A stretch of DNA of 64,000 bases from Squalus acanthias. Its lineage: Eukaryota. The stretch is from assembly GCA_030390025.1 (NCBI GenBank), contig CM059431.1:124436001-124500000 (forward strand), given 5' to 3'. The notes under the pieces are model-generated. The model made no database searches. It worked only from the letters and a program-made list of their open reading frames with translations, and was not told where the DNA came from. The position numbers and the translations under genes were made by a program. Below, in pieces: positions 10,580 through 26,055 of this stretch. Within the stretch, counting starts at the first letter, position 1; every line of letters starts with the position of its first letter.

Positions 10580-11245
10580 GGGGATGAATTTCCATGTGAA
10601 GTTCTCCCGTTTGTCCACTGTAACTTCAACGGAAGAGCCACAGAATCCCTGGAAGAATGGGATCAATGGGTTTCCATGGCTCTTCCAGCGAAGTTATGTT
10701 GGATGCGCGGAAGAAACGCCTTTGTTTGCGGGCCTTCACGGGAGCATCGAAAATTAAGCTGGGTCTTTTGGGTGCAAGGACAGTAAGTAATAGGTGCATT
10801 TTAAAAGGTTTCGAATACATTTAAAAAAAAATACACTAAGGAACTGATGACTGTAACCAAAATAACTAGAAAATAGTTTTGTATATTCTTAAAAAGTCAT
10901 TTTCAGTCATTTGAAATCAGGTTACTCAAAGGTGGTGCATCGATACTGCGATTAAAAATGCTTATTTTTTGTGATTAACCCATTTTCAGCTGCATTAATC
11001 AAACTGCACCAAGTTACCACTCTTAGATATATCAAGGAATACATTTTAAAGCAACATTTAAAAAAAAAGTTATGTTTTAAAACACTGCCCAATTGCACTG
11101 GTTCATGGCAGATTTTGTGTTTGGCGACATGCAAATGAGTTTAAGCGGAAATGCCAGGAAAAAAAACACTTTTGAAAATGGACGCGATTTAGGGCGCAAT
11201 TTGTGCCGGAATCGCCAATTGTACTCAAAGCGGAAACTCTACCCC
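10580..11245. mobile_element. Harbinger-type MITE
   Basis: TIRs GGGGATGAATTTCC...GGAAACTCTACCCC. Confidence 0.55.
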
Positions 11246-11292
11246 AGTGTGCGTAGTTAGAGCACTGTCATTTTATTCTCAGTCTCTCACTC

Positions 11293-13035
11293 ACACACAG
11301 AAACATGCACACAGCTACACACATACACATACCTACAGAAACATGCACACAGGTACACACATACACATACCTACAGAAACATGCACACAGTTACACACAT
11401 ACACATACCTACAGAAACATGCACACAGGCACACACATACACATACATACAGAAACATGCACACAGGTACACACATACACATACATACAGAAACATGCGC
11501 ACAGCTACACACATACACATACCTACAGAAACATGCACACAGCTACACACATACACATACATACAGAAACATGCACACAGGTACACACATACACATACCT
11601 ACAGAAACATGCACACAGGCACACACATACACATACCTACAGAAACATGCACACAGGCACACACATACACATACCTACAGAAACATGCACACAGCTACAC
11701 ACATACACATACATACAGAAACATGCACACAGGTACACACATACACATACCTACAGAAACATGCGCACAGGTACACACATATACATACAGAAACATGCGC
11801 ACAGCTACACACATACACATACCTACAGAAACATGCACACAGCTACACACATACACATACCTACAGAAACATGCACACAGGCACACACATACACATACAT
11901 ACAGAAACATGCGCACAGCTACACACATACACATACCTACAGAAACATGCACACAGCTACACACATACACATACCTACAGAAACATGCACACAGGTACAC
12001 ACATATACATACAGAAACATGCACACAGGTACACACATATACATACAGAAACATGCGCACAGGTACACACATACACATACCTACAGAAACATGCACACAG
12101 GTACACACATATACATACAGAAACATGCACACAGGTACACACATACACATACCTACAGAAACATGCACACAGGTACACACATAACATACTACAGAAACAA
12201 TCGCACGGTACACACATATACATACAGAAACAAGCACACAGGTACACACATATACATACAGAAACATGCGCACAGGTACACACATACACATACCTACAGA
12301 AACATGCACACAGGTACACACATACACATACCTACAGAAACATGCGCACAGGTACACACATATACATACAGAAACATGCACACAGGTACACACATATACA
12401 TACAGAAACATGCGCACAGGTACACACATACACATACTACAGAAACATGCACACAGGTACACACATACACATACTACAGAAACATTGCACACAGTACACA
12501 CATACACATCCTACAGAAACATGCGCACAGGTACACACATATACATACAGAAACATGCACACAGGTACACACATATACATACAGAAACATGCGCACAGGT
12601 ACACACATATACATACAGAAACATGCACACAGGTACACACATATACATACAGAAACATGCACACAGGTACACACATACACATACAGAAACATGCACACAG
12701 GTACACACATACACATACCTACAGAAAAATGCGCACAGTTACACACATACACATACATACAGAAACATGCACAGAGGTACACAGATACACATACCTACAG
12801 AAACATGCACACAGGTACACACATACACACAGAGACATGTGCATAGGTACATACATACACATACATACAGAAACATGCACACAGGCACACACACACATAC
12901 ACACAGAAACATGCACGCAGGTACACACATACACACACATACAGAACAAAGCCCACAGGTACAAACATACACATATACACAGAAACATGCACACACACAG
13001 GTGCATGCATTAACATGCACATAGAAACATGCACA
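11293..13035. repeat. Minisatellite with 38-bp and 34-bp units
   Basis: Tandem ACAGAAACATGCACACAGGTACACACATACACATACCT and a shorter ...CACATATACAT variant; degenerates at the right end. Confidence 0.97.
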
Positions 13036-15170: not shown

Positions 15171-16892
15171 TGTAAGGGATTCCTGACCCTGCGTGTCTCG
15201 CAGCCTGTGAGATTCACGCGGCTCTGTGCAGCCTGTATGTCAGTGCGGGTCTAGGCCTGGTTGCCTGTTCTGGTCTCCAGCCAGTCTGGGAACACTAGAC
15301 ACACCTGTGAGTGGTTCGAATCACTCTCCCTTACGGTTCTAGACACTGGACTTAGATGCGAGAGCAGTAATGGAGATAAAACTCATGTAGACTTGGTTTG
15401 AATGGTACGAAATGGAAAATCTTTATTGCATGATACTTAAGATTATGAAATACATGTCATAAGCACAGATTAATGACAGTACAATCTTACAAACAGTTAT
15501 ATAGTCGATCTTAGGGAAACGAGGAACGAACGGCACAAAGTAAATAGGGGCACACATTACAAATATCCTTAATCCTTAAACCCTCCCCTATCAATATCTA
15601 TCCTAAACTAGCTTCGTAGGATCTCGAGACTCATGCTCACCACTCGTGATAACTCGGAGAAATTCCGAATAGCTGATCGGATGTTTTTCACCGCAGCACC
15701 CACGTGTCGGTCAGGAGATCTCCTGGTCCCACTTGTTTACTTGCTTCTGCTGCTCCGGCTAGTAGGCTGGACCGTCTGCTGTGATGAAGACCTGTGTTGG
15801 TTGGCTTAACAGGTACTCTTGGAGCACAGTTGTCAATATCATCGATACGATGTGTTTTCACGTTCCAATCTCCTTGGACACAGTCCCGTTATCGTCGATG
15901 CAATATGTTTTGTTAAAAGTTCAAAATAGAAATCTTCCTGGCGAGGAAAACTTGGCTGATCGACCTACAGGCGCGGTCGGGATTTACTGACCGTGGCGAT
16001 GGATATGGTCTTCCTCTCTTCTCCTCTCATCTCATCTCATCTCATCTCATCTCGGGCCTTTGGTTCCGCTGCCAGTTACCAACATAGGTCTTCGTTACGC
16101 GACACGAGGTAGATCCGAACGGATCAGAAAGTTCAACAGTCTTTTCAGAAGAGGCAACGGGCAAGCAGAAGCCCAACTACGAGTACACAGGAGCAGCCAC
16201 GAGGTTACGAATCGACCGGATAAAAGCACAGGAGCAAGCGAGCGAATGCAAGAGCAAGAGAGCGAATGGACGGTTTGGAGCCTGCAATTATAGTGCAAAA
16301 ATCTTCCGTTTCCCGCCCAACTATAATGTCCATTCTTTGTTTAGGGTTTGGCGCCCAAATGTCTTGTATGGGTGATCTCCGTTCTTAATGGGTTTCGGGG
16401 CTACTCATAAATGTCTGAGTACCTGTTAATATTTCTCCCATTGTTAAATCGGTCGGTGTTCTCCCTGGAGGGGTTTGGGGCTTCCAAGTGTCCTGTATAA
16501 CTACCTGCTAACGGCTCTCTCATCGTAGAGTCGTTGGGATTTTACATATTAATGTCTTTTGGATGGGCCCTTGAGTACTCGGTACAATGGCTTTCCTTTG
16601 TACCTGGGAGACCGATTCCAGTATCTATGTTTATACTGCAAACCCATAATGTCTCGTGTATTATCTTCACTGTGCTGAATCGTTATCGATCTTGCACAAA
16701 TGTTTAATGGAACGCCATCTTGTCTGCCTGTTGAAAAGTCTAGAATGTTGTGTCACGAGGTGCGGCGGCCATTTTACAGGCTGCTTGTGTCCAATTTAAA
16801 CCTGCCAGCATTCTGCTGAAATAAAAGCTGTTTGAACGAAACTTTGTGTTTTCTCCTTATTAATCAAATCGCGATATATTGCGAATTCTACA
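15171..16892 (-). repeat. 3' LTR (1722 bp)
   Basis: Direct repeat of 22967-24688 at a constant offset of 7796; TGTA...TACA termini; short ORF translations identical in both copies. Confidence 0.97.
15422..15427 (-). terminator. Putative LTR polyadenylation signal AATAAA
   Basis: GCAATAAAG on the minus strand, conserved in both solo LTRs. Confidence 0.6.
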
Positions 16893-16904
16893 GTCCCTCC
16901 TGTT
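16893..16904 (-). other. Polypurine tract
   Basis: AACAGGAGGGAC immediately precedes the 3' LTR start (TGTAG) on the minus strand. Confidence 0.65.
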
Positions 16905-17338
16905 GATGCGAATAACTCCGCTTATCGTATCAAAAATCACAGTGGTGAGCAATATTATCTCGATTTCTCTCCGAATCCAGTAAATTAATCCCATAATTTT
17001 TAACTTATCTAGGGTCTCGGTGTCGTCCTTATTTCCCAAGAAAATCACATTTTATATCACCGTAGGCATTATTTGCCCTTAAACTTACACCACTTGTTTT
17101 CCTTCCCGGCGTAACCAGGCCGATACCTCACGCATCACCTGTATATTTGTCTTTTATTCAGGGAAAGGAAAAAAAAAAACAAAACCTAAAACCAAACAAT
17201 CAACACCATCACCAAAATAATCAAACCCCAACTCTTAAAACATGTCGAGTTTCCAACGTATTTACAATCTCTGAAAATCTTATATGAGTACAAACTTCCG
17301 CGGCGCACGCGGCGAGCGGGAGTGACGCCATTTTCCGA

Positions 17339-19690
17339 TTACACGGTGCTCTCATCGTGCACGCGCACGTAACGTTCTCGCCACTCTCCCGTGTTTTCAT
17401 GCTTGGTGAGGCGTTTGTCTCTTTTACAATGTACGACCAATAGGTACACTACAATAAACACTTGGCATACGACTAAAATGTGGGAGGCTATTCTAATCCA
17501 TGAAGGCACTTCAATATTAGTGAACAGATTCCACCACGGTGGAACTACTATGTCCAGAATGTCTGTTCCTATTTCGACAGTTTTCTGCTCTAATGTATAA
17601 AAATGTTTCTGTGATACCGCGACGGCTTTCAGAAGTTTGGTTAAATGTTCAGGGAGAGGGGGAATGAGGTATCCAAAATGTGCGACAAATCGCTGCAAGT
17701 CGGTGAAATTCTCTTTTACTGTGAGATGAACAGTGGATGGTTCAGGGATTGGGATAATTCGCTGTTGTGCTACTTGAACTTCAGCCCTGGGTTTAAAACA
17801 GAAACTGCTGTCACTCACCGGACACCGGCTACGGTTTCCATGCTGGTAGTGTTGCGCTGCAGTGGTAACACAATATGTTCCACCCCCGATGTATGCTACC
17901 TGCGGAGGCACATGATCTTGTGCCATTGCCTCCATGGTGCAATTCATGGACTTGGCGCCAGCCGTTCTGAACCCGCACTGTGGTGTTAAAAAGGCATTCA
18001 AGTGCTGGGGGCACAGTATTATGTGTGCTCCCCTGCCACGACAACCAGAGAGATCTGTACCTGTCATCGTTTGCTCCCAGCGGATGACGTAAGGTGGAAC
18101 CGCTGCGTAACGAATGTGGGCTCCCCCCTGAATGACACCAATGTTCTCTACCCGATACACCGGGGCGGGCTTTGCTGTGTCGCCCAAAACCGGCATGCGT
18201 AATACTATTCCCATAATAGTATGGTTTGAACGTCCGCAGTCCACGGGGACTGGGTAAGCTTCTGAAGCTAGCCTGAGCTGGCACGGACTTAATGCGTTCT
18301 GAAAAGGGTGGAGCGCCCGTAGGTGTTTGTTACTTATCCAGGACGGAACCAAACCTTGTTTTAAATCCTCCAAATTACTGCGGCCCTCGCCCAGTAACCA
18401 CGCCCCGTAAAGCACGCACACCTCGTTCTGCGCAGCTTGATCGGATGCATTCCGATCTTCCCTGATCAGGGCATTTACCGTACGCGCATGTTTCTCCAGC
18501 TCTGCTATAATTTCCTTTAAATGGAGAGTCATGGCTTGGTCCTCGTGTAGACCTGACCCTACCACTTTATTCTCATCTGTTAGAATGTCTTTTAACTGTG
18601 TTTTTAAACCATTAATCTGGGTCTGCAGCTCCACACTGTCTAGAGCGTTGACCACAGATGTCCCTGTGTTAAAAGCAGTGAACGCATCGTTCACCAAACC
18701 CCTTCTTTGCCTCCCTACTTGATCCAAAACTTCCTGCGGTGCGGTGTACAAACTTGTCTTATCAATTTCTGCAAAATCAAACTCGTAAAATTGTCTGAAC
18801 ATCTTGGTCAACAGGACCTGATACAACTGTTCCGTCTTTTTGGGGCACCACTCTGGTAACCGTACCTCAGTGAGATTTAAAATCACCGAGGCCACCGCGT
18901 AATGTACCCCCTGAAATAGTATCTGGTCTGTGGGGACCAGTACCAAACCATTCCCGGGTCCCTTACTAGTTTTAGGGCACCCTTCTTCCTCAGCTAGAAC
19001 CACCGGAATCGTGGGCGGGGCTTTGCGTGGGCGCGTAATGAGCTCAGTGGCATTTACTGGGATCGGGGAGAATGGGGCTCCGCACCCCCTGGTGCTCGCA
19101 TCCCACCTCATCCCCTGTCCGTTATCCTGCCATTGATTAATAAAAAATATGGAGATGCCTTTGGGGCAAACGTACTTTGACCCCCACATACATACATAAA
19201 TCCCCTCATCCGGTTCCCACCATTTGTCCCAACAGACTTTCACTTGTCCGTCTGTCCCCGTAATTGTCCGATGGGTATTATTACCCAGTCGTTCCCACTC
19301 GACCGAAGAGTTTCTCATAGTTTTGCTCAGCTTTCGCAGCCACCAGCATCGGCTCAATGGGACCTTCCCACTACAAGTCAAACAAATCCGTTTGCCGACG
19401 GTGACGCTGATCCTGGGTGCGATGATCCTTACTTTGGGGCACAGTAAAGAAGTCTCTTGGTAGGCAAACCCCGATGTGCTGGAATACTCCGTTGAGTTCG
19501 TTCCCAGCCATCCTGGCCACCTTCCCTTGTGGAAATAGGTGCTGGTCCCCTCTGCCTTCCGTCTTCCGGTCCCATCCACCGCGATGGGGGCCGTGTCCCC
19601 GGAACATCCAAACACCACGACATCCTTGGTGCGGCCTCGATAGGCCAATCCACATCCGATTGCCACGAGCAATACTAGAATTCGTTCCAT
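17339..19690 (-). CDS. env: Envelope glycoprotein: Ig-like domain plus F-type class I fusion protein (~783 aa)
   Basis: Signal peptide MERILVLLVAIGCGLA from ATG 19690; furin site RQRR at 18701-18712; fusion peptide GLVNDAFTAF; heptad repeat; Cys-rich region; TM helix ILVVCQVFIVVYLLVV; short tail; uninterrupted frame. Confidence 0.9.
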   Translation of the reverse strand: MERILVLLVAIGCGLAYRGRTKDVVVFGCSGDTAPIAVDGTGRRKAEGTSTYFHKGRWPGWLGTNSTEYSSTSGFAYQETSLLCPKVRIIAPRISVTVGKRICLTCSGKVPLSRCWWLRKLSKTMRNSSVEWERLGNNTHRTITGTDGQVKVCWDKWWEPDEGIYVCMWGSKYVCPKGISIFFINQWQDNGQGMRWDASTRGCGAPFSPIPVNATELITRPRKAPPTIPVVLAEEEGCPKTSKGPGNGLVLVPTDQILFQGVHYAVASVILNLTEVRLPEWCPKKTEQLYQVLLTKMFRQFYEFDFAEIDKTSLYTAPQEVLDQVGRQRRGLVNDAFTAFNTGTSVVNALDSVELQTQINGLKTQLKDILTDENKVVGSGLHEDQAMTLHLKEIIAELEKHARTVNALIREDRNASDQAAQNEVCVLYGAWLLGEGRSNLEDLKQGLVPSWISNKHLRALHPFQNALSPCQLRLASEAYPVPVDCGRSNHTIMGIVLRMPVLGDTAKPAPVYRVENIGVIQGGAHIRYAAVPPYVIRWEQTMTGTDLSGCRGRGAHIILCPQHLNAFLTPQCGFRTAGAKSMNCTMEAMAQDHVPPQVAYIGGGTYCVTTAAQHYQHGNRSRCPVSDSSFCFKPRAEVQVAQQRIIPIPEPSTVHLTVKENFTDLQRFVAHFGYLIPPLPEHLTKLLKAVAVSQKHFYTLEQKTVEIGTDILDIVVPPWWNLFTNIEVPSWIRIASHILVVCQVFIVVYLLVVHCKRDKRLTKHENTGEWRERYVRVHDESTV

Positions 19691-19702
19691 CCTTCCTTGG
19701 TT

Positions 19703-19730
19703 CCTGTGATCAGATAGAATGAGGTAGCCA
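19703..19730 (-). promoter_or_regulatory. Putative env splice acceptor
   Basis: CTACCTCATTCTATCTGATCACAG|G lies 13 nt upstream of the env ATG. Confidence 0.55.
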
Positions 19731-19878
19731 GCCTCGCAAGAGTCTCTGGCTTTTGTGAAGGGTGAGCGGGTCCCCTGACCTCGCCTCACGTAAATTTCAA
19801 CGTTTGCTGAATAAACTTCCTCTAAACCTAACCTTAAAACTCCCATCATTTTATCGTTTTCTGTTAAAAACACTACAA

Positions 19879-19972
19879 ACTTAGCCTTATTAAAACTTAA
19901 AACTTAACCTTGAACTATAAACTTAAAACTTAACCTTGAACTATAAACTTAAAACTTAGAACTATAACTTTA
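19879..19972. repeat. Short AT-rich tandem repeats between ORF X and env
   Basis: Repeated AAACTTAAAACTTAACCTTGAACTAT-type units. Confidence 0.8.
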
Positions 19973-20001
19973 CAGTGCCGCCCGTTCTCAGGGCGGCCCC
20001 T

Positions 20002-21150
20002 TTAAACTCTGAGAAGGCTGCTGCGAGCTCTTCCCGACGGTGGGAGGGCACTGACCCTTCCCTCTGATCTGCCGCAGCCTGTTGCTGCGCTGACCCTTCC
20101 CTCTGATCTGCCGCAGCCTGTTACTGCTGCGATGTGGCCGGTCTGTACCCAGGTTATCTTAACCTGAAGTCTACGCCTTGGGGCAGTCTGGGGACATGAC
20201 CACATCCTCCTGGGCTGGGGTTCTCTACTTGACCTACGGGGAGTTGCTATGGGCGGGGGTTCCGTGACGGACGGACCGGGTTCCGAGACCTCCAACGGGA
20301 TGACCTGGGGTTCCATCACAGTCGCCGGCTCCGCCTCCGCTGACTCCGCCTCCCTAACCTCGGGGCTGGCAGTTCGTGGCTCCGCCCTGCTCGGCCCAGC
20401 AAGCGGCCCTTCACTCGTGATCTCTGCCTCCCCTGAGGACTGGACGTTCAAAGCGGGCGGCCACATCTCTGGGAGCCACATCGGTACTCTCTGTGCTCCT
20501 ATAGCGGCTGGCCCTGCCTCCTCTAGCTCCTCCCTCCTGTCCTCGGGACCTGCAGCTTGTGTGTCCACCCTGTGTGGATCTCTACCTATAGGCCCCATTC
20601 CCTCCAGACCGTTCCTCAGGAACCACCCGTCATCATCACTATGCTCATCTGCACTATCCTCATCTGACCAGGGTACCCTGGGTTCTTCCTCATCTAACCC
20701 CCAACTCCAGAAAAACGCTGCATGATCGTCCGGGATGTCCCTTCCCCTGATGCAAGCTGCTATGCCTGCCTGTGTGCCTTGTGGTCCTACCTGGGGCTGT
20801 GCTTTCCCATTGGCGGGATTTACCCCTGTAGTTTTCCCCTGCGCACCCGGCTGGTACAGTTTGCATTGGTTTACATCCTCATACTCCCGGCTTTTGGCTA
20901 CCCTGTAGGCTGCTTTTACCTCACTAAGCTGCGCTTCTAGCCTGAGCACGTCTAACTTTCCCATTGATCGGGCGTTCTCCTCCCGCAGGGCCTGCTCTCT
21001 AAGCTGCCCTTCCAGCCCATCTATTTTCCCTATTAAGCGGGCGTTCTCCTCCCGCAAGGCCTGCTCTTTTAACCTGGCCTCCTCACCGCAGACCCCCTCC
21101 TGTGCGTGTCTTTTAAAAGGACACAGGTAGGCAGGCTGCGTGGGCTCTAG
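20002..21150 (-). CDS. ORF X: unknown coiled-coil, acidic and Pro-rich protein in frame with gag (~382 aa)
   Basis: Open from directly after the gag TGA (LEPTQPAYLCPFKR...) to the stop at 20002-20004; no protease, RT or integrase motifs. Confidence 0.7.
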   Translation of the reverse strand, partial: LEPTQPAYLCPFKRHAQEGVCGEEARLKEQALREENARLIGKIDGLEGQLREQALREENARSMGKLDVLRLEAQLSEVKAAYRVAKSREYEDVNQCKLYQPGAQGKTTGVNPANGKAQPQVGPQGTQAGIAACIRGRDIPDDHAAFFWSWGLDEEEPRVPWSDEDSADEHSDDDGWFLRNGLEGMGPIGRDPHRVDTQAAGPEDRREELEEAGPAAIGAQRVPMWLPEMWPPALNVQSSGEAEITSEGPLAGPSRAEPRTASPEVREAESAEAEPATVMEPQVIPLEVSEPGPSVTEPPPIATPRRSSREPQPRRMWSCPQTAPRRRLQVKITWVQTGHIAAVTGCGRSEGRVSAATGCGRSEGRVSALPPSGRARSSLLRV

Positions 21151-21156
21151 TCATTG
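21083..21156 (-). promoter_or_regulatory. Putative stop-codon readthrough signal (CAA UGA CUAG plus 3' hairpin)
   Basis: TGA at 21153-21151 followed by CTAG; downstream complementary blocks CGCAG/CTGCG and CCTGTG/CACAGG. Confidence 0.7.
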
Positions 21157-22962
21157 GGTACTATTAGACGGTCCTGCGGCACCTACGGGGCCGGTTGCGA
21201 CCGCCACCTGTCCACGCCCATTCAAGTCTAGCTTGCGCATGGCTCCTAACACTGCTTCGAGGTCGTCGGGAGGGGTGGGTGCCTTGGCTTCCTTAGCCGG
21301 GACAGGCGCCTGGGCTCGGACCGCGGGATTTTTATCCTTGGAATCCTTCCAAGGGTTCCTGCAATGCTTGCGCCAGTGCCCTGTCTTTCCACACCCGTAA
21401 CAAGCATTACTTGCCTGTGGGGCGCGATTCCCCTCCTGATGCCACTCTCTTTGATACGGGGCTGCGGGTCGTACCTCATGTACTCTTCCCTTAAAGGGAC
21501 GTGTCGTCATACCCCTTATATTACGATAACCTAACGTGAGTCGATTCAAGACCGACTCTTCCGTAAGGTTGAGATCATTGGGATCGAACCATGCTTTTGC
21601 CTGCTCTCTAACGGCTGGTAAACTGTTGGCTATTATGCACCTAAGCTAATGAGTTAAAGCGGCGCCTTCCACATCTTCGCGCTCGGGCGCACCTAGACAG
21701 CTGCGCTCATATACTGGCCACAGCCTGTCGGCAAAAACCTTCGGGGGTTCTCCCTCCATCTGCACTGTCTGTCCCACTCTAGCAAACGGACCTCCGTCGT
21801 TCGCCCCCAACACTTCTAGGACCTCATTCTTTAATTCCTCATAACTCTTGTTTCCCCTCTTGCTCTCGCCTGAGAGACACTGAAGGACCGAGCTGTCTAA
21901 TGAGAACAGCAGCATTTTTGCTGTCTCCCCATCATCGCAGCCGTTAATGGCTGCGGCTTGCTCAACTTCTCTGAAATGTACGGAAGGGTCGTCTATCTCG
22001 GTCAGCTTCCGTACGTGATTTATCATAGCTCTCAGCTGATGTGAACTGTGAGGCAACACCAGCTGTCCGAGGAGATCCCCCGGTTCTTCCCCACCGTTTC
22101 TGCTTGGGCCCCTTTTAATACCCGTTACTGGATACAACGATCCCTTTTCTACTTTCTTTTCAATGGGCTCTTTTGTTTCTTCCATTGCTTCCTCCCTAAC
22201 CCAGGTTTCTGAATAGCTGGGTGGCGCGGAGGGCGCAGTGGCTACTACTTCTTCTGCTTTACTTGGTGGGGATTTTCTAAATCTCTCATTTACTAGCGGC
22301 TGGTGCGCCGACGGATTGATAAGGCACACCATGCCGTTCGCATTGTTCACGGCCTTTTTGAGGTTCTCTATCTCCCTTTGGCAGGCGCTATGGTCGGCTC
22401 CCTGAAACTTATCCTCAAGGGCCAACTTATATGCCGACCTAACCCCCATTAAGCTCTCTTCTTGAGTTCTTATCTGGGCAGCTTGGCGGTTACATCTTTC
22501 CTTTAACCTGCTCTCATTCAATTTTGCCTCAGTGACCTGGCACTCGAGATAATCTATCCTTGTCTTAAGGTGACTGGAGACTTCCTGGCTTTCCTGGTGT
22601 AACTCATTTAAATTCTTAATGAGCACCTCCCCTCCAGAAACCTTCTTCTCCATTTCTCCCTCTAAATGACTGATTCGAGCTACTAGCGCTGTAATGGTCT
22701 GGTTTGAAATCTGAACCTGCCTTTTGTAGCACATAAGCCAGACTGCTTTCTCAAGTGTCTTTTTATGTTCTTTACTATCTGTCCACCTTTCAGCTGCCTC
22801 TAGTGGGCTCTTATCCGCTAACAATTCACTTATCCATTTCTTAGTTAGATTAACCTTTCCAAACACATAATCCGCTATCTTTTCCTGCATAACATTTCGT
22901 ACAGTCATTCCAAAATCTAACACACTACCCTCTCGCTGCCAGTGTCCTGCCGCGGTCGCCAT
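21151..22962 (-). CDS. gag: Gag-like polyprotein (~603 codons) with one internal in-frame TAG at 21646-21648
   Basis: ATG 22962 (MATAAGHW); coiled coil; PSAPPSY at 22213-22233; helical capsid-like region; CYGCGKTGHWRKHC knuckle at 21361-21402; ORFs 21646-23013 and 21151-21549 share a frame. Confidence 0.88.
22944..22961 (-). other. Primer-binding site complementary to tRNA-Arg(UCG)
   Basis: TGGCGACCGCGGCAGGAC lies 5 nt after the 5' LTR and is complementary to ...GUCCUGCCGCGGUCG-CCA, the vertebrate tRNA-Arg-TCG 3' end as recalled. Confidence 0.85.
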
Positions 22963-22966
22963 TTTC

Positions 22967-24688
22967 TGTAAGGGATTCCTGACCCTGCGTGTCTCGCAGC
23001 CTGTGAGATTCACGCGGCTCTGTGCAGCCTGTATGTCAGTGCGGGTCTAGGCCTGGTTGCCTGTTCTGGTCTCCAGCCAGTCTGGGAACACTAGACACAC
23101 CTGTGAGTGGTTCGAATCACTCTCCCTTACGGTTCTAGACACTGGACTTAGATGCGAGAGCAGTAATGGAGATAAAACTCATGTAGACTTGGTTTGAATG
23201 GTACGAAATGGAAAATCTTTATTGCATGATACTTAAGATTATGAAATACATGTCATAAGCACAGATTAATGACAGTACAATCTTACAAACAGTTATATAG
23301 TCGATCTTAGGGAAACGAGGAACGAACGGCACAAAGTAAATAGGGGCACACATTACAAATATCCTTAATCCTTAAACCCTCCCCTATCAATATCTATCCT
23401 AAACTAGCTTCGTAGGATCTCGAGACTCATGCTCACCACTCGTGATAACTCGGAGAAATTCCGAATAGCTGATCGGATGTTTTTCACCGCAGCACCCACG
23501 TGTCGGTCAGGAGATCTCCTGGTCCCACTTGTTTACTTGCTTCTGCTGCTCCGGCTAGTAGGCTGGACCGTCTGCTGTGATGAAGACCTGTGTTGGTTGG
23601 CTTAACAGGTACTCTTGGAGCACAGTTGTCAATATCATCGATACGATGTGTTTTCACGTTCCAATCTCCTTGGACACAGTCCCGTTATCGTCGATGCAAT
23701 ATGTTTTGTTAAAAGTTCAAAATAGAAATCTTCCTGGCGAGGAAAACTTGGCTGATCGACCTACAGGCGCGGTCGGGATTTACTGACCGTGGCGATGGAT
23801 ATGGTCTTCCTCTCTTCTCCTCTCATCTCATCTCATCTCATCTCATCTCGGGCCTTTGGTTCCGCTGCCAGTTACCAACATAGGTCTTCGTTACGCGACA
23901 CGAGGTAGATCCGAACGGATCAGAAAGTTCAACAGTCTTTTCAGAAGAGGCAACGGGCAAGCAGAAGCCCAACTACGAGTACACAGGAGCAGCCACGAGG
24001 TTACGAATCGACCGGATAAAAGCACAGGAGCAAGCGAGCGAATGCAAGAGCAAGAGAGCGAATGGACGGTTTGGAGCCTGCAATTATAGTGCAAAAATCT
24101 TCCGTTTCCCGCCCAACTATAATGTCCATTCTTTGTTTAGGGTTTGGCGCCCAAATGTCTTGTATGGGTGATCTCCGTTCTTAATGGGTTTCGGGGCTAC
24201 TCATAAATGTCTGAGTACCTGTTAATATTTCTCCCATTGTTAAATCGGTCGGTGTTCTCCCTGGAGGGGTTTGGGGCTTCCAAGTGTCCTGTATAACTAC
24301 CTGCTAACGGCTCTCTCATCGTAGAGTCGTTGGGATTTTACATATTAATGTCTTTTGGATGGGCCCTTGAGTACTCGGTACAATGGCTTTCCTTTGTACC
24401 TGGGAGACCGATTCCAGTATCTATGTTTATACTGCAAACCCATAATGTCTCGTGTATTATCTTCACTGTGCTGAATCGTTATCGATCTTGCACAAATGTT
24501 TAATGGAACGCCATCTTGTCTGCCTGTTGAAAAGTCTAGAATGTTGTGTCACGAGGTGCGGCGGCCATTTTACAGGCTGCTTGTGTCCAATTTAAACCTG
24601 CCAGCATTCTGCTGAAATAAAAGCTGTTTGAACGAAACTTTGTGTTTTCTCCTTATTAATCAAATCGCGATATATTGCGAATTCTACA
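22967..24688 (-). repeat. 5' LTR (1722 bp)
   Basis: Direct repeat of 15171-16892, followed on the minus strand by the PBS. Confidence 0.97.
24084..24114 (-). promoter_or_regulatory. Putative LTR core promoter (GC box plus TATAA)
   Basis: GGGCGGG at 24114-24108 then TATAA at 24088-24084; similar arrangement in both solo LTRs. Confidence 0.5.
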
Positions 24689-26055
24689 GGAGGACTCTCA
24701 GCAGGGGGCGCTATCCACCCAGGGTCTTCAGAGGGCAATACACCTACATTCACATGACCCAAGACCAGTGCATGAGGAGGGTGCGCTTTACCAAAGAGGT
24801 CATTACAGAGATCTGTGGCCTTGTGGAACGAAGACTCAGATGTCAAGGCACAGCCAGGACTGCATTGCCTGTGGCAGTCAAGGTCACAGTAGCACTTAAT
24901 TTTTATGCTACTGGAACCTTCCAGGCTGCCACAGGTGATAGAAGTTACATATCGCAATCCTCTGTGCTCTTATGCATAAGGGAGGTTGCTGAGACCCTAT
25001 ACACTCTGAGGAATGACTAATATCATTCCTTATTGCCAGAGAAGACCAGAGGCAGAGAGCTCTAGGGGGAGAAATTTGTGTTAGCCAGTAAAGTTGCTGG
25101 AGGTAACAGTCGCTGAAAATAGGTGCAACGCTAACAGAGCAAAATTCATCTGGGAGGATGGAGACTGTTGGCGCAGCGCTTACCTGCCATGCAACGCCAT
25201 CCTGGTGACGTTGCTGGAGGCATCCAACCCAAAGTTGGTGTGCAGGTGCGGCGTTCGAGCCTCTCACAGCCTCTGGAGGCAAGTCTGTGGAGCTCACAGG
25301 GAATTGAGGGCAATGAAGAGCCCTGAGAATTAAAGTGGCCATGCACACTGAAGCAATACAAATTAAAATGAAGTGAAACAATGCAGTTTTTACATAGGGT
25401 TGCATAGGATATACAGCACAGAAACAGGTCATTTCAGCCCTTTCTGCTTCTTTAAAAAAATATTTAACATTAAAAAGAAGTCCCAAATGTGAATATTCAG
25501 CTCGCATAAGCTAAATTCCCTTCCTAACCTCAAAAAATGGGAAAAATGCCTCAGCACGAACACAAGTGGCTCAACAAGCCAGGGACGGGGCACCCAGGGT
25601 CTCGCACGCAGCACTCCAGCTTTGTGCAGGGCGTCAACACTGCAACACAGGCCCTCTACCCGCAGGGGCCAGAGGCCCTCCAGAAAGAACGATGTGGGAT
25701 TACATTACCGAGGCTGTCACTATGTCGCCCCCACCACCTGGCTCCAGTGCCCAAAGAAGCATCATGACCTCAGACCACTAGTCAAGGTCAGTGAATGCAT
25801 TTTCAAAAGCCACCTCCTACTAACTGCACCACTAGCCTCACACACTGCTCATGCACGACCCCATATCACTCACCTACCAACAATCTGCACCAATCAGAAG
25901 GCACAGCTCCCATTCCTAGCCTTACCTTACCTCCTTCGAGGAGACTGTGCAGATCATTCTTGGCAGGAGTATGGCTGAGCCCTTGGCTAGTGGCGGGGCT
26001 GAAAGGATACAAGATGCTGGTATCCTCATATGTTACTCTCCTTCTGGCATGCACC

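Follow-up and report, generated by a model that had tools for sequence, protein, structure and literature searches.

F-type fusogens of paramyxoviruses rely on a separate attachment protein, and in these viruses the F body by itself is not known to provide attachment. Among retroviruses, the lokiretroviruses have an envelope protein (Env) composed of a signal peptide, an RXKR site, a fusion peptide, a coiled coil and a transmembrane (TM) segment, which matches the Pfam family PF00523 with an E value of 2.2e-7; the hosts named in the available parts of that report are lampreys, bony fishes, amphibians and reptiles, and cartilaginous fish are not reported there (PMC7947760). The Env of foamy viruses is also F-like, and according to the available parts of PMC11468914 its receptor-binding domain (RBD), which has a novel fold, is inserted in domain III between heptad repeat C (HRC) and the furin site. 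How retroviral F-like Envs find their receptors is unsolved for lokiretroviruses and not yet settled for foamy viruses. We here analysed a 64,000-nucleotide stretch of the Squalus acanthias genome (the window), which contains an endogenous retrovirus (ERV), apparently a very young one, whose closest protein relatives are found in skates and sharks, and we focus on the N-terminal part of its Env.

We propose, with a probability of about 0.6, that this Env carries a selected, lineage-old immunoglobulin (Ig)-like receptor-binding head on an F-type fusogen, and that this head is not a recent capture. The stretch flagged by the original prediction as an Ig-like domain taken from a host would form the central part of an N-terminal module, rich in cysteine and about 220 residues long (Env 17-237), in this elasmobranch ERV. 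The Env is a class I fusogen of the F type known from paramyxoviruses and pneumoviruses, and is built, in order, of signal peptide, module, Pro/Thr-rich glycosylated linker, F2-like segment, RQRR, fusion peptide, heptad repeat A (HRA), beta domains, heptad repeat B (HRB) and TM segment, and the central 100 or so residues of the module most likely form a divergent Ig-like beta-sandwich. Furin cleavage would yield a surface (SU)-like subunit consisting of the module and F2, whose Ig-like head may bind a cell-surface receptor and supply the attachment or trigger function left by paramyxoviruses to HN, H or G, and the F1-like subunit would then perform fusion.

The N-terminal module and the fusogen body of Env

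Env is encoded by an 844-codon open reading frame (ORF) on the minus strand (17339-19873), and its start was placed at the Met codon at 19690, matching the start in the relatives P0004, P0010 and P0018, which gives a protein of 783 residues. Window positions 19170-19435 (minus strand) thereby correspond to Env residues 86-174, and the residues at this span read ...ISVTVGKRICLTCSGKVPLSRCWWLRK...VKVCWDKWWEPDEGIYVC. The parts of the gene are as follows, with the basis of each assignment in brackets.

19643..19690, minus strand: Env start codon and signal peptide, residues 1-16, MERILVLLVAIGCGLA (hydrophobic N-terminus, predicted helix 2-10; cleavage position set by eye)
19436..19642, minus strand: first part of the module, ahead of the Ig region, residues 17-85, including C29 and C84 (many invariant columns in alignment A4)
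19121..19435, minus strand: putative Ig-like core, residues 86-190 (Ig_3, CRTAM, ESM neighbours, predicted strands, dN/dS)
18980..19120, minus strand: post-Ig segment, with C203, and Pro/Thr-rich linker, residues 206-230 (sequence)
18701..18979, minus strand: F2-like segment, residues 238-330, from a conserved C-P...G-L motif to RQRR (start of the relatives' alignment, VIA)
18701-18712, minus strand: furin-type site RQRR, residues 327-330 (sequence)
17501..18700, minus strand: F1-like ectodomain, residues 331-730 (AlphaFold2, Foldseek, VIA)
17339..17500, minus strand: TM helix, residues about 731-753, 30-residue cytoplasmic tail and stop at 17339-17341 (predicted helix 730-765, hydrophobic run WIRIASHILVVCQVFIVVYLLVV)

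We investigated the body of Env with an AlphaFold2 model based on 49 aligned relatives, which reached pLDDT values of 80-95 over most of residues 240-310 and 410-650. A Foldseek search of the PDB with this model gave 231 matches at E<=0.001, with the human parainfluenza virus 3 (hPIV3) F structure 1ztm as the best (E 3.1e-11), and the first 50 rows were all F proteins of paramyxoviruses and pneumoviruses (hPIV3, parainfluenza virus 5 (PIV5), Nipah, Hendra and Langya viruses, respiratory syncytial virus (RSV) and human metapneumovirus (hMPV); E 3e-11 to 1e-7). VIA-align matched model residues 245..653 to residues 26..432 of the 1ztm chain with a Z score of 12.1 and 19.8 Å root mean square deviation (rmsd) over 329 aligned residues, and matched the model to post-fusion Nipah F with Z 11.8 and rmsd 4.8 Å over 287 aligned residues; across the F structures, Z ranged from 12.1 to 8.7 with 280-330 residues aligned. 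Both programs recovered the nested domain I/II/III body of the F type. RQRR stands directly before the fusion peptide GLVNDAFTAFNTGTSVVNAL in the sequence, predicted helices at 391-444, 679-714 and 730-765 mark HRA, HRB and TM, respectively, and the beta domains of the F1-like ectodomain occupy residues 477-645. The F-like character claimed for the remainder of the protein in the original prediction was thus borne out. By contrast, PF00523 (Fusion_gly) matched neither the window Env at E<=10 nor nine relatives at E<=1, a PDB sequence search with the whole Env returned chance matches only and no F protein, and a Pfam scan of the whole Env found nothing relevant save a weak Ig_3 match to the module. 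The model-based comparison confirmed Env as a structural homologue of paramyxovirus and pneumovirus F, and not as a member of PF00523. The range aligned by VIA always ran from about 243-245 to 650-660 of the model and began at about F residue 26-34, the start of mature F2. Since the alignment to F begins at Env ~245 with the N-terminus of mature F2, residues 17-237 are, in the modelled structure, an extra part that precedes a fusogen of the F type which is itself complete.

Among the predicted viral structures of BFVD, the Env model was matched best by F-like glycoproteins from negative-strand RNA viruses of arthropods and by the F proteins of baculoviruses and paramyxoviruses. The matches also included the Envs of walleye epidermal hyperplasia virus 1 (WEHV-1; E 9.4e-12) and walleye dermal sarcoma virus (WDSV; E 1.9e-9), which scored no better than many other F-like glycoproteins, and, weakly, feline foamy virus Env (E 7.6e-5, rank 47). 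The matches of these two epsilonretroviral models, Q9WHI8 and A4GTG3, hint that the epsilonretroviral Env may itself be of the F type; a full-text literature search found no paper stating this.

We then examined the module for the Ig signature. It contains ISVTVGKRICLTC (C103, C106), WWLRK (W116, W117) and DEGIYVC (D161 to C167), with 61 residues between C106 and C167, so that the B-strand Cys, the C-strand Trp and the F-strand D-x-G-x-Y-x-C of the V/I-set motif occur at the expected spacing, as originally noted. This arrangement is rare by chance: of 200,000 shuffled versions of the whole Env, 233 contained the pattern C-x(9,16)-W-x(30,60)-[DE]-x-[GA]-x-Y-x-C, as did 159 of 200,000 made from residues 17-237 alone. 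Across the 17 relatives of alignment A4, which are 47-74% identical to the window copy, neither C106 nor W117 varies, and only three of the aligned sequences shown lack C167 (one of the three being truncated); we infer a C106-C167 disulfide. The Pro-rich stretch PFSPIP...PRKAPPTIP, which the original prediction took as a linker between this region and the F-like part, indeed lies there (Env 206-230, window 19001-19075). It holds a conserved N-glycosylation sequon NAT (N213), its P/T-rich stretch and NATEL are kept in relatives with variable flanking sequence, and the linker region has pLDDT values below 50.

Profile comparisons point in the same direction. Of the 17 sequences in A4, 14 were matched by Pfam Ig_3, at E 0.00044 in the best case and over positions 5-74 of the 78 in the profile, and of the 13 in alignment A3, 8 were matched. 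Ig_3 was the sole recurring Pfam family in the relatives, the other match in A4 being a single chance one; a Pfam check proposed with the original prediction therefore gave a recurrent Ig match, all of it sub-cut-off. For the profile search of PDB sequences we used the 17 modules of A4, A3 being contaminated by the zinc-finger part of the chimeric gene model P0004. With this profile, the whole Ig-V domain of CRTAM was matched (profile 88-179 to chain 7-97, E 0.15 and 0.28) in a nearly gap-free alignment with the B-strand Cys, the Trp and DxGxYxC in register. The ESM Atlas neighbours of residues 75-200 were Ig-family clusters (score 0.88-0.90), which we treat as a lead only. The AlphaFold2 model, in turn, predicted strands at 102-107, 116-121, 141-146, 149-154 and 163-168 (pLDDT about 50-60), at the positions of strands B, C, D/E and F. 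Taken with the motif, these signals make an Ig-like fold of the module core likely, at a level we would call good odds. We also considered whether the module arose within the protein by duplication of domain II of F, which is Ig-like; hhalign of the module profile against the F body of Env gave E 0.3, with no demonstrable homology and no sign of such an origin.

Several results weigh against an Ig fold. The window copy itself matched Ig_3 only with E 0.035-0.19 (12.7-15.1 bits, the cut-off being 30), and every Ig sequence signal lies under the curated threshold of its family. The top PDB match of the module profile was the unrelated zinc-finger protein ArfGAP1 (E 0.097). The module stayed below pLDDT 55 in the full-length model, with no confident fold, and reached a mean of 40.4 when folded alone with 13 sequences. 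Foldseek with this low-confidence model gave no match at E<=0.001 (best E 0.1), and its list was made up almost wholly of antibody V domains, which may reflect their abundance in the PDB. Four or five extra cysteines and the Trp-rich stretch CWDKWW are, furthermore, unusual for Ig domains. Beyond C106 and C167 the putative core contains C103, C115, C153 and C175; C115 of the window copy is Trp in other copies, and the E-F region is Trp-rich. Eight cysteines are conserved over the module (C29, C84, C103, C106, C153, C167, C175 and C203). The most conserved motif in A4, H-x-G-R-W-P-G-W-L-G-x-N-S-T, precedes the Ig part, and no Pfam family was found for the pre-Ig residues 17-85. The core is thus at best an unusual Ig domain within a larger module of ~220 residues.

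The same observations could be explained if the module were a cysteine-rich beta domain of another or new fold, its Ig pattern arising by coincidence or convergence, which might still bind a receptor. The AlphaFold check proposed with the original prediction fits this explanation in that it gave module pLDDT values of about 40-55 and no confident Ig fold, as do the sub-threshold matches, the eight conserved cysteines in place of two, and the precedent of the foamy virus RBD, which in the available parts of PMC11468914 has its own fold on an F-like Env. We nevertheless consider it rather unlikely, because Ig_3 is the only Pfam family to recur and is covered over nearly its whole profile, the CRTAM V domain aligns over its full length, the language-model neighbours are Ig families, and the strands that the same AlphaFold model does predict lie where strands B, C, E and F are expected.

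Conservation, selection and origin of the module

We next turned to the claim that the module is a captured host Ig domain, for which no donor could be found. An exhaustive phmmer search with the whole Env against 1.84 billion representative proteins yielded 50 matches and no host donor; eight of them overlap the module, all being Env fragments or gene models containing them, no match is confined to the Ig region, and all 23 matches looked up by name or sequence were Env relatives or chimeric gene models. When the profile of the 17 modules was searched against 5.8 billion proteins, among candidates sharing 5-residue words and 76-412 residues long, six matches at E<=1 were obtained, all of them Env relatives and none a host protein. 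Gene models P0003, P0004 and P0040 have Env pieces fused to 'Niban 1-like', 'ZFP2-like' and 'fbxo15 isoform X3', respectively, and are probably annotation chimeras.

The module is instead shared through the lineage. Its identity to the window copy is 72-73% in a Rhinoraja longicauda Env, 53% in a Pristiophorus japonicus gene model, 50% in a metagenome contig and 42% in Rhincodon typus. Within the S. acanthias genome, 5,830 candidate copies of diverged subfamilies were found, of which 150 were scored, and the module was kept at 48-64% identity in all 12 loci that were fetched. By the Nei-Gojobori method, dN/dS in the Ig region was 0.11-0.21 where pairs had a dS of 0.16-0.39, 0.11-0.13 where they were further apart and close to saturation, and 0.27-0.61 in very close pairs, in which neutral decay after insertion weighs more; the pre-Ig part showed 0.11-0.14 between moderately diverged subfamilies. 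These estimates were made with 20 of the 150 scored copies (no internal stop, mostly long open frames) and five of the 12 fetched loci, a choice of open frames that may have biased them towards conservation and counts against our proposal to that extent; six fetched loci with stops in the module were left out, and L022, free of stops, was used in the relatives' alignment only. Since dN/dS in the Ig region is 0.11-0.21, selection has kept the module while the lineage diversified. The module is thus under purifying selection and a fixed, long-standing part of the Env of this retroviral lineage.

How these data bear on a host Ig exon captured fairly recently and fused to env can be stated simply. 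Viruses do capture host Ig domains, and the modules of distant relatives (see below) are not detectably homologous to this one or are missing. Against these stand the lack of a host protein in either protein search, the presence of the module in skate and shark Envs at 42-74% identity, and its sharing by subfamilies of the same genome whose synonymous sites are saturated relative to the window copy. Such a recent capture is therefore unlikely, and we give it very little credence indeed, while an ancient capture of the module from a host is conceivable.

The original prediction had also asked whether related Envs share or swap the domain. Close relatives share it, as described above. Distant full-length relatives, namely those of Mustelus asterias (P0012), Chiloscyllium punctatum (P0013), the frogs Pelodytes ibericus (P0019) and Mantella aurantiaca (P0048) and the contig P0034, align only from Env ~221-237 onward, where the C-P...G-L motif is conserved; ahead of this motif, each has a distinct stretch of 140-190 residues. 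By eye, the N-terminal modules of P0013, P0019, P0048 and P0034 show Cys/Trp/Cys or V-set-like patterns; P0013 carries the automatic UniRef name 'Ig-like domain-containing protein', P0034 has a weak V-set match (E 0.045), and the ESM neighbours of the frog module are Ig clusters (0.84-0.86, again a lead only). However, hhalign of our module profile against P0019, P0013 and P0034 gave E values of 0.27, 0.12 and 0.21, with no significant similarity, and the best pairwise BLAST between modules reached E 0.007 in a database of 12 sequences. In P0037 the signal peptide leads directly to the C-P motif without any module. Because the distant relatives carry modules with no detectable homology to ours and P0037 carries none, the N-terminus of this Env family is a variable slot, and modules have been gained or exchanged somewhere in the family; the slot may hold a single ancestral Ig-like head that evolves fast, or may have been filled anew several times. 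A wider extension, in which the slot is exchangeable throughout this family of elasmobranch and frog retroviruses and takes Ig-like receptor-binding cassettes, possibly from the host Ig superfamily, host range follows from cassette turnover and the lineage is possibly still infectious, seems doubtful to us at present. In the frog sequences P0019 and P0048, a hydrophobic leader and an R-x-K-R site (REKR and RNKR, respectively) come just before the Ig-like-looking module, an arrangement reminiscent of foamy virus Env with its cleaved leader peptide.

A receptor-binding role of the module is plausible. The module might alternatively act as an immune decoy or modulator, the former having been offered beside receptor binding in the original prediction, or as a shield or clamp holding the F body in its pre-fusion state, and not in attachment. 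Such roles would suit the position of the module at the exposed N-terminus, on a linker that is flexible and glycosylated (Env has N-glycosylation sequons at N65, N127, N137 and N213), and purifying selection shows function without saying which. Yet attachment still has to be provided for in a retrovirus that has only one glycoprotein, and no similarity to a known immunomodulator was found in the Pfam, PDB sequence and PDB profile searches; nothing speaks for a decoy role, and we regard these non-attachment roles together as improbable. We accordingly keep the receptor-binding head as our working proposal, and the module offers a defined, expressible domain for a receptor search.

The provirus and its family

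The provirus occupies 15171-24689 of the window, and its parts outside env are listed below.

22967..24689, minus strand: 5' long terminal repeat (LTR), 1,723 bp, 100% identical to 15171-16893
21151..22966, minus strand: gag region, coiled-coil-rich, followed by a CCHC zinc knuckle (ORFs in one frame; zf-CCHC E 0.022, weak)
20002..21150, minus strand: pol remnant, with most of protease (PR), reverse transcriptase (RT), RNase H and integrase (IN) gone (blastn against L021; IN domains in L021 and L062)
15171..16893, minus strand: 3' LTR, 1,723 bp, 100% identical to 22967-24689

The gag frame has an in-frame stop at 21646-21648 and ends with a stop at 21151-21153. In blastn, full-length copies match window positions 20051-20873 with the C-terminal end of their integrase ORF, and at 20873 contigs from other public runs cease to agree with the window; the provirus is a pol-deleted derivative with its junction near 20873/20874. 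Contigs of X1, X2 and X9, which need not derive from RNA, cover the stretch under study at 95-100% likeness and show no splice joints.

A full-length arrangement is found at locus L062 (G000:C9:26402000-26411999), where a 631-residue gag and a stop are followed by an in-frame pol of 1,520 residues with the domains RVP, RVT_1, RT_RNaseH_2 (tether), RNase_H, Integrase_H2C2, rve and an SH3-like domain. The nearest solved structures to the RT-RNase H of the element are those of xenotropic murine leukaemia virus-related virus and murine leukaemia virus (XMRV/MLV; E 2.4e-68), closely followed by foamy virus (1.5e-62), and the nearest integrase is that of prototype foamy virus (1.2e-32), then Ty3. 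With L062, LTRs, gag, PR, RT, a tether plus second RNase H, IN and env are all present, the window copy being without most of pol. By its dual RNase H, the element is a retrovirus in the strict sense. An RT in L021 (2430-7000) was considered as the element's own pol and discarded: it belongs to a LINE-type insertion whose nearest solved relatives are L1 ORF2 and R2, and it has an LTR on one side and, on the other, a copy of the element that is truncated at its 5' end.

Integrase matches lay in open frames of 1,507-1,533 residues in 56 of the 66 full-length matches scored, one with an internal TGA, and all 57 env matches scored were 99-100% identical without an internal stop. The family thus looks very young and is possibly still active. 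The genome holding the window measures 3.7 Gb. Some env copies occur in pairs 7.7-7.8 kb apart on the same strand (C792:41661/49453, C7:29046441/29054163 and C9:22813185/22820956), a distance that one pol-less unit would span; this suggests tandem arrays with a shared LTR. In a diverged subfamily, L055 (G000:C8:43751500-43761499), ~57% identical in the module, a 614-aa gag and a 252-aa ORF immediately precede env and pol domains are absent, and together with the window copy this suggests that pol-less gag-env forms may recur in several subfamilies. Elsewhere in the window, positions 11170-13020 form a large block of tandem repeats (72 copies shifted in register, with 38 and 10-14 bp as the periods), and the long ORFs to which it gives rise on either strand, 11193-13013 among them, are spurious.

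Comparison with known systems

The nearest solved sequence to the module is the Ig-V domain of CRTAM (4h5s, 3rbg), which aligns as a whole V domain including the Cys, the Trp and DxGxYxC; its E values (0.15-0.28) are not significant, and there is no sign that CRTAM was a donor. Herpes simplex virus gD offers a viral parallel in that it is a receptor-binding protein with an Ig V-like core, and it triggers a separate fusogen, gB, of class III.

The Env architecture was new to the reader who made the original prediction, and this impression agrees with the literature as far as it could be searched: no published Ig-like N-terminal domain on an F-type retroviral Env was found in full-text searches, which leave subscription-only papers uncovered. 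The word 'immunoglobulin' does not occur in the available parts of PMC9040795, of the errantivirus paper 10.1101/2023.10.26.564294 and of the 2026 review PMC13709493, and 'Ig-like' is likewise absent from those of the latter two.

The predicted Envs of the epsilonretroviruses WEHV-1 and WDSV match ours in structure, as given above, though no better than other F-like proteins do; our element has gag and pol in one frame with a stop between, and its nearest solved RT is gammaretroviral, with foamy virus close behind, so that an epsilon-like affiliation is no more than possible. The epsilonretroviral Envs have 1,159-1,317 residues and show no sequence similarity to ours, being absent from the 50 phmmer matches; the epsilonretroviral SU could not be modelled, according to the available part of 10.1101/2021.11.05.467493.

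The lokiretrovirus Env resembles the present one in being retroviral, related to the F of Mononegavirales and equipped with a signal peptide, an RXKR-type site, a fusion peptide, a coiled coil and a TM segment (PMC7947760, in its available parts, as for the points that follow). Both Env families have frog members: an endogenous lokiretrovirus is listed for Xenopus tropicalis in Table S1 of that paper, and our family includes X. tropicalis as well. Unlike ours, however, the lokiretrovirus Env model has no N-terminal domain, the word 'immunoglobulin' being absent from the accessible text, and it has detectable similarity to PF00523, whereas our Env has none. Shark genomes are entered in the genome table of the supplement with no asterisk, a mark that X. 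tropicalis bears there, the legend lying outside the available part. An abundant, apparently very recent retrovirus with an F-type Env is thus placed in cartilaginous fish, hosts unreported in the available parts of the lokiretrovirus paper (PMC7947760). Both a lokiretrovirus and an epsilon-like affiliation of the element are conceivable.

Paramyxovirus and pneumovirus F shares with our Env the nested domains DI/DII/DIII, a fusion peptide directly behind a furin-type site, and the HRA, HRB and TM segments. It differs in that F begins at Env ~245, our protein having ~220 extra N-terminal residues, in that there is no match at the sequence level, and in that our Env is retroviral, without a separate attachment protein. 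Foamy virus Env is, like ours, an F-like retroviral fusogen with an added domain joined by linkers, but its RBD lies within domain III and has its own fold, whereas the added domain here stands at the extreme N-terminus and is Ig-like in appearance (PMC11468914, available parts). If our proposal holds, an Ig-like head on the N-terminus of F2 would be a third solution to receptor attachment by F-type fusogens, beside the separate HN, H or G protein and the domain III RBD of foamy viruses.

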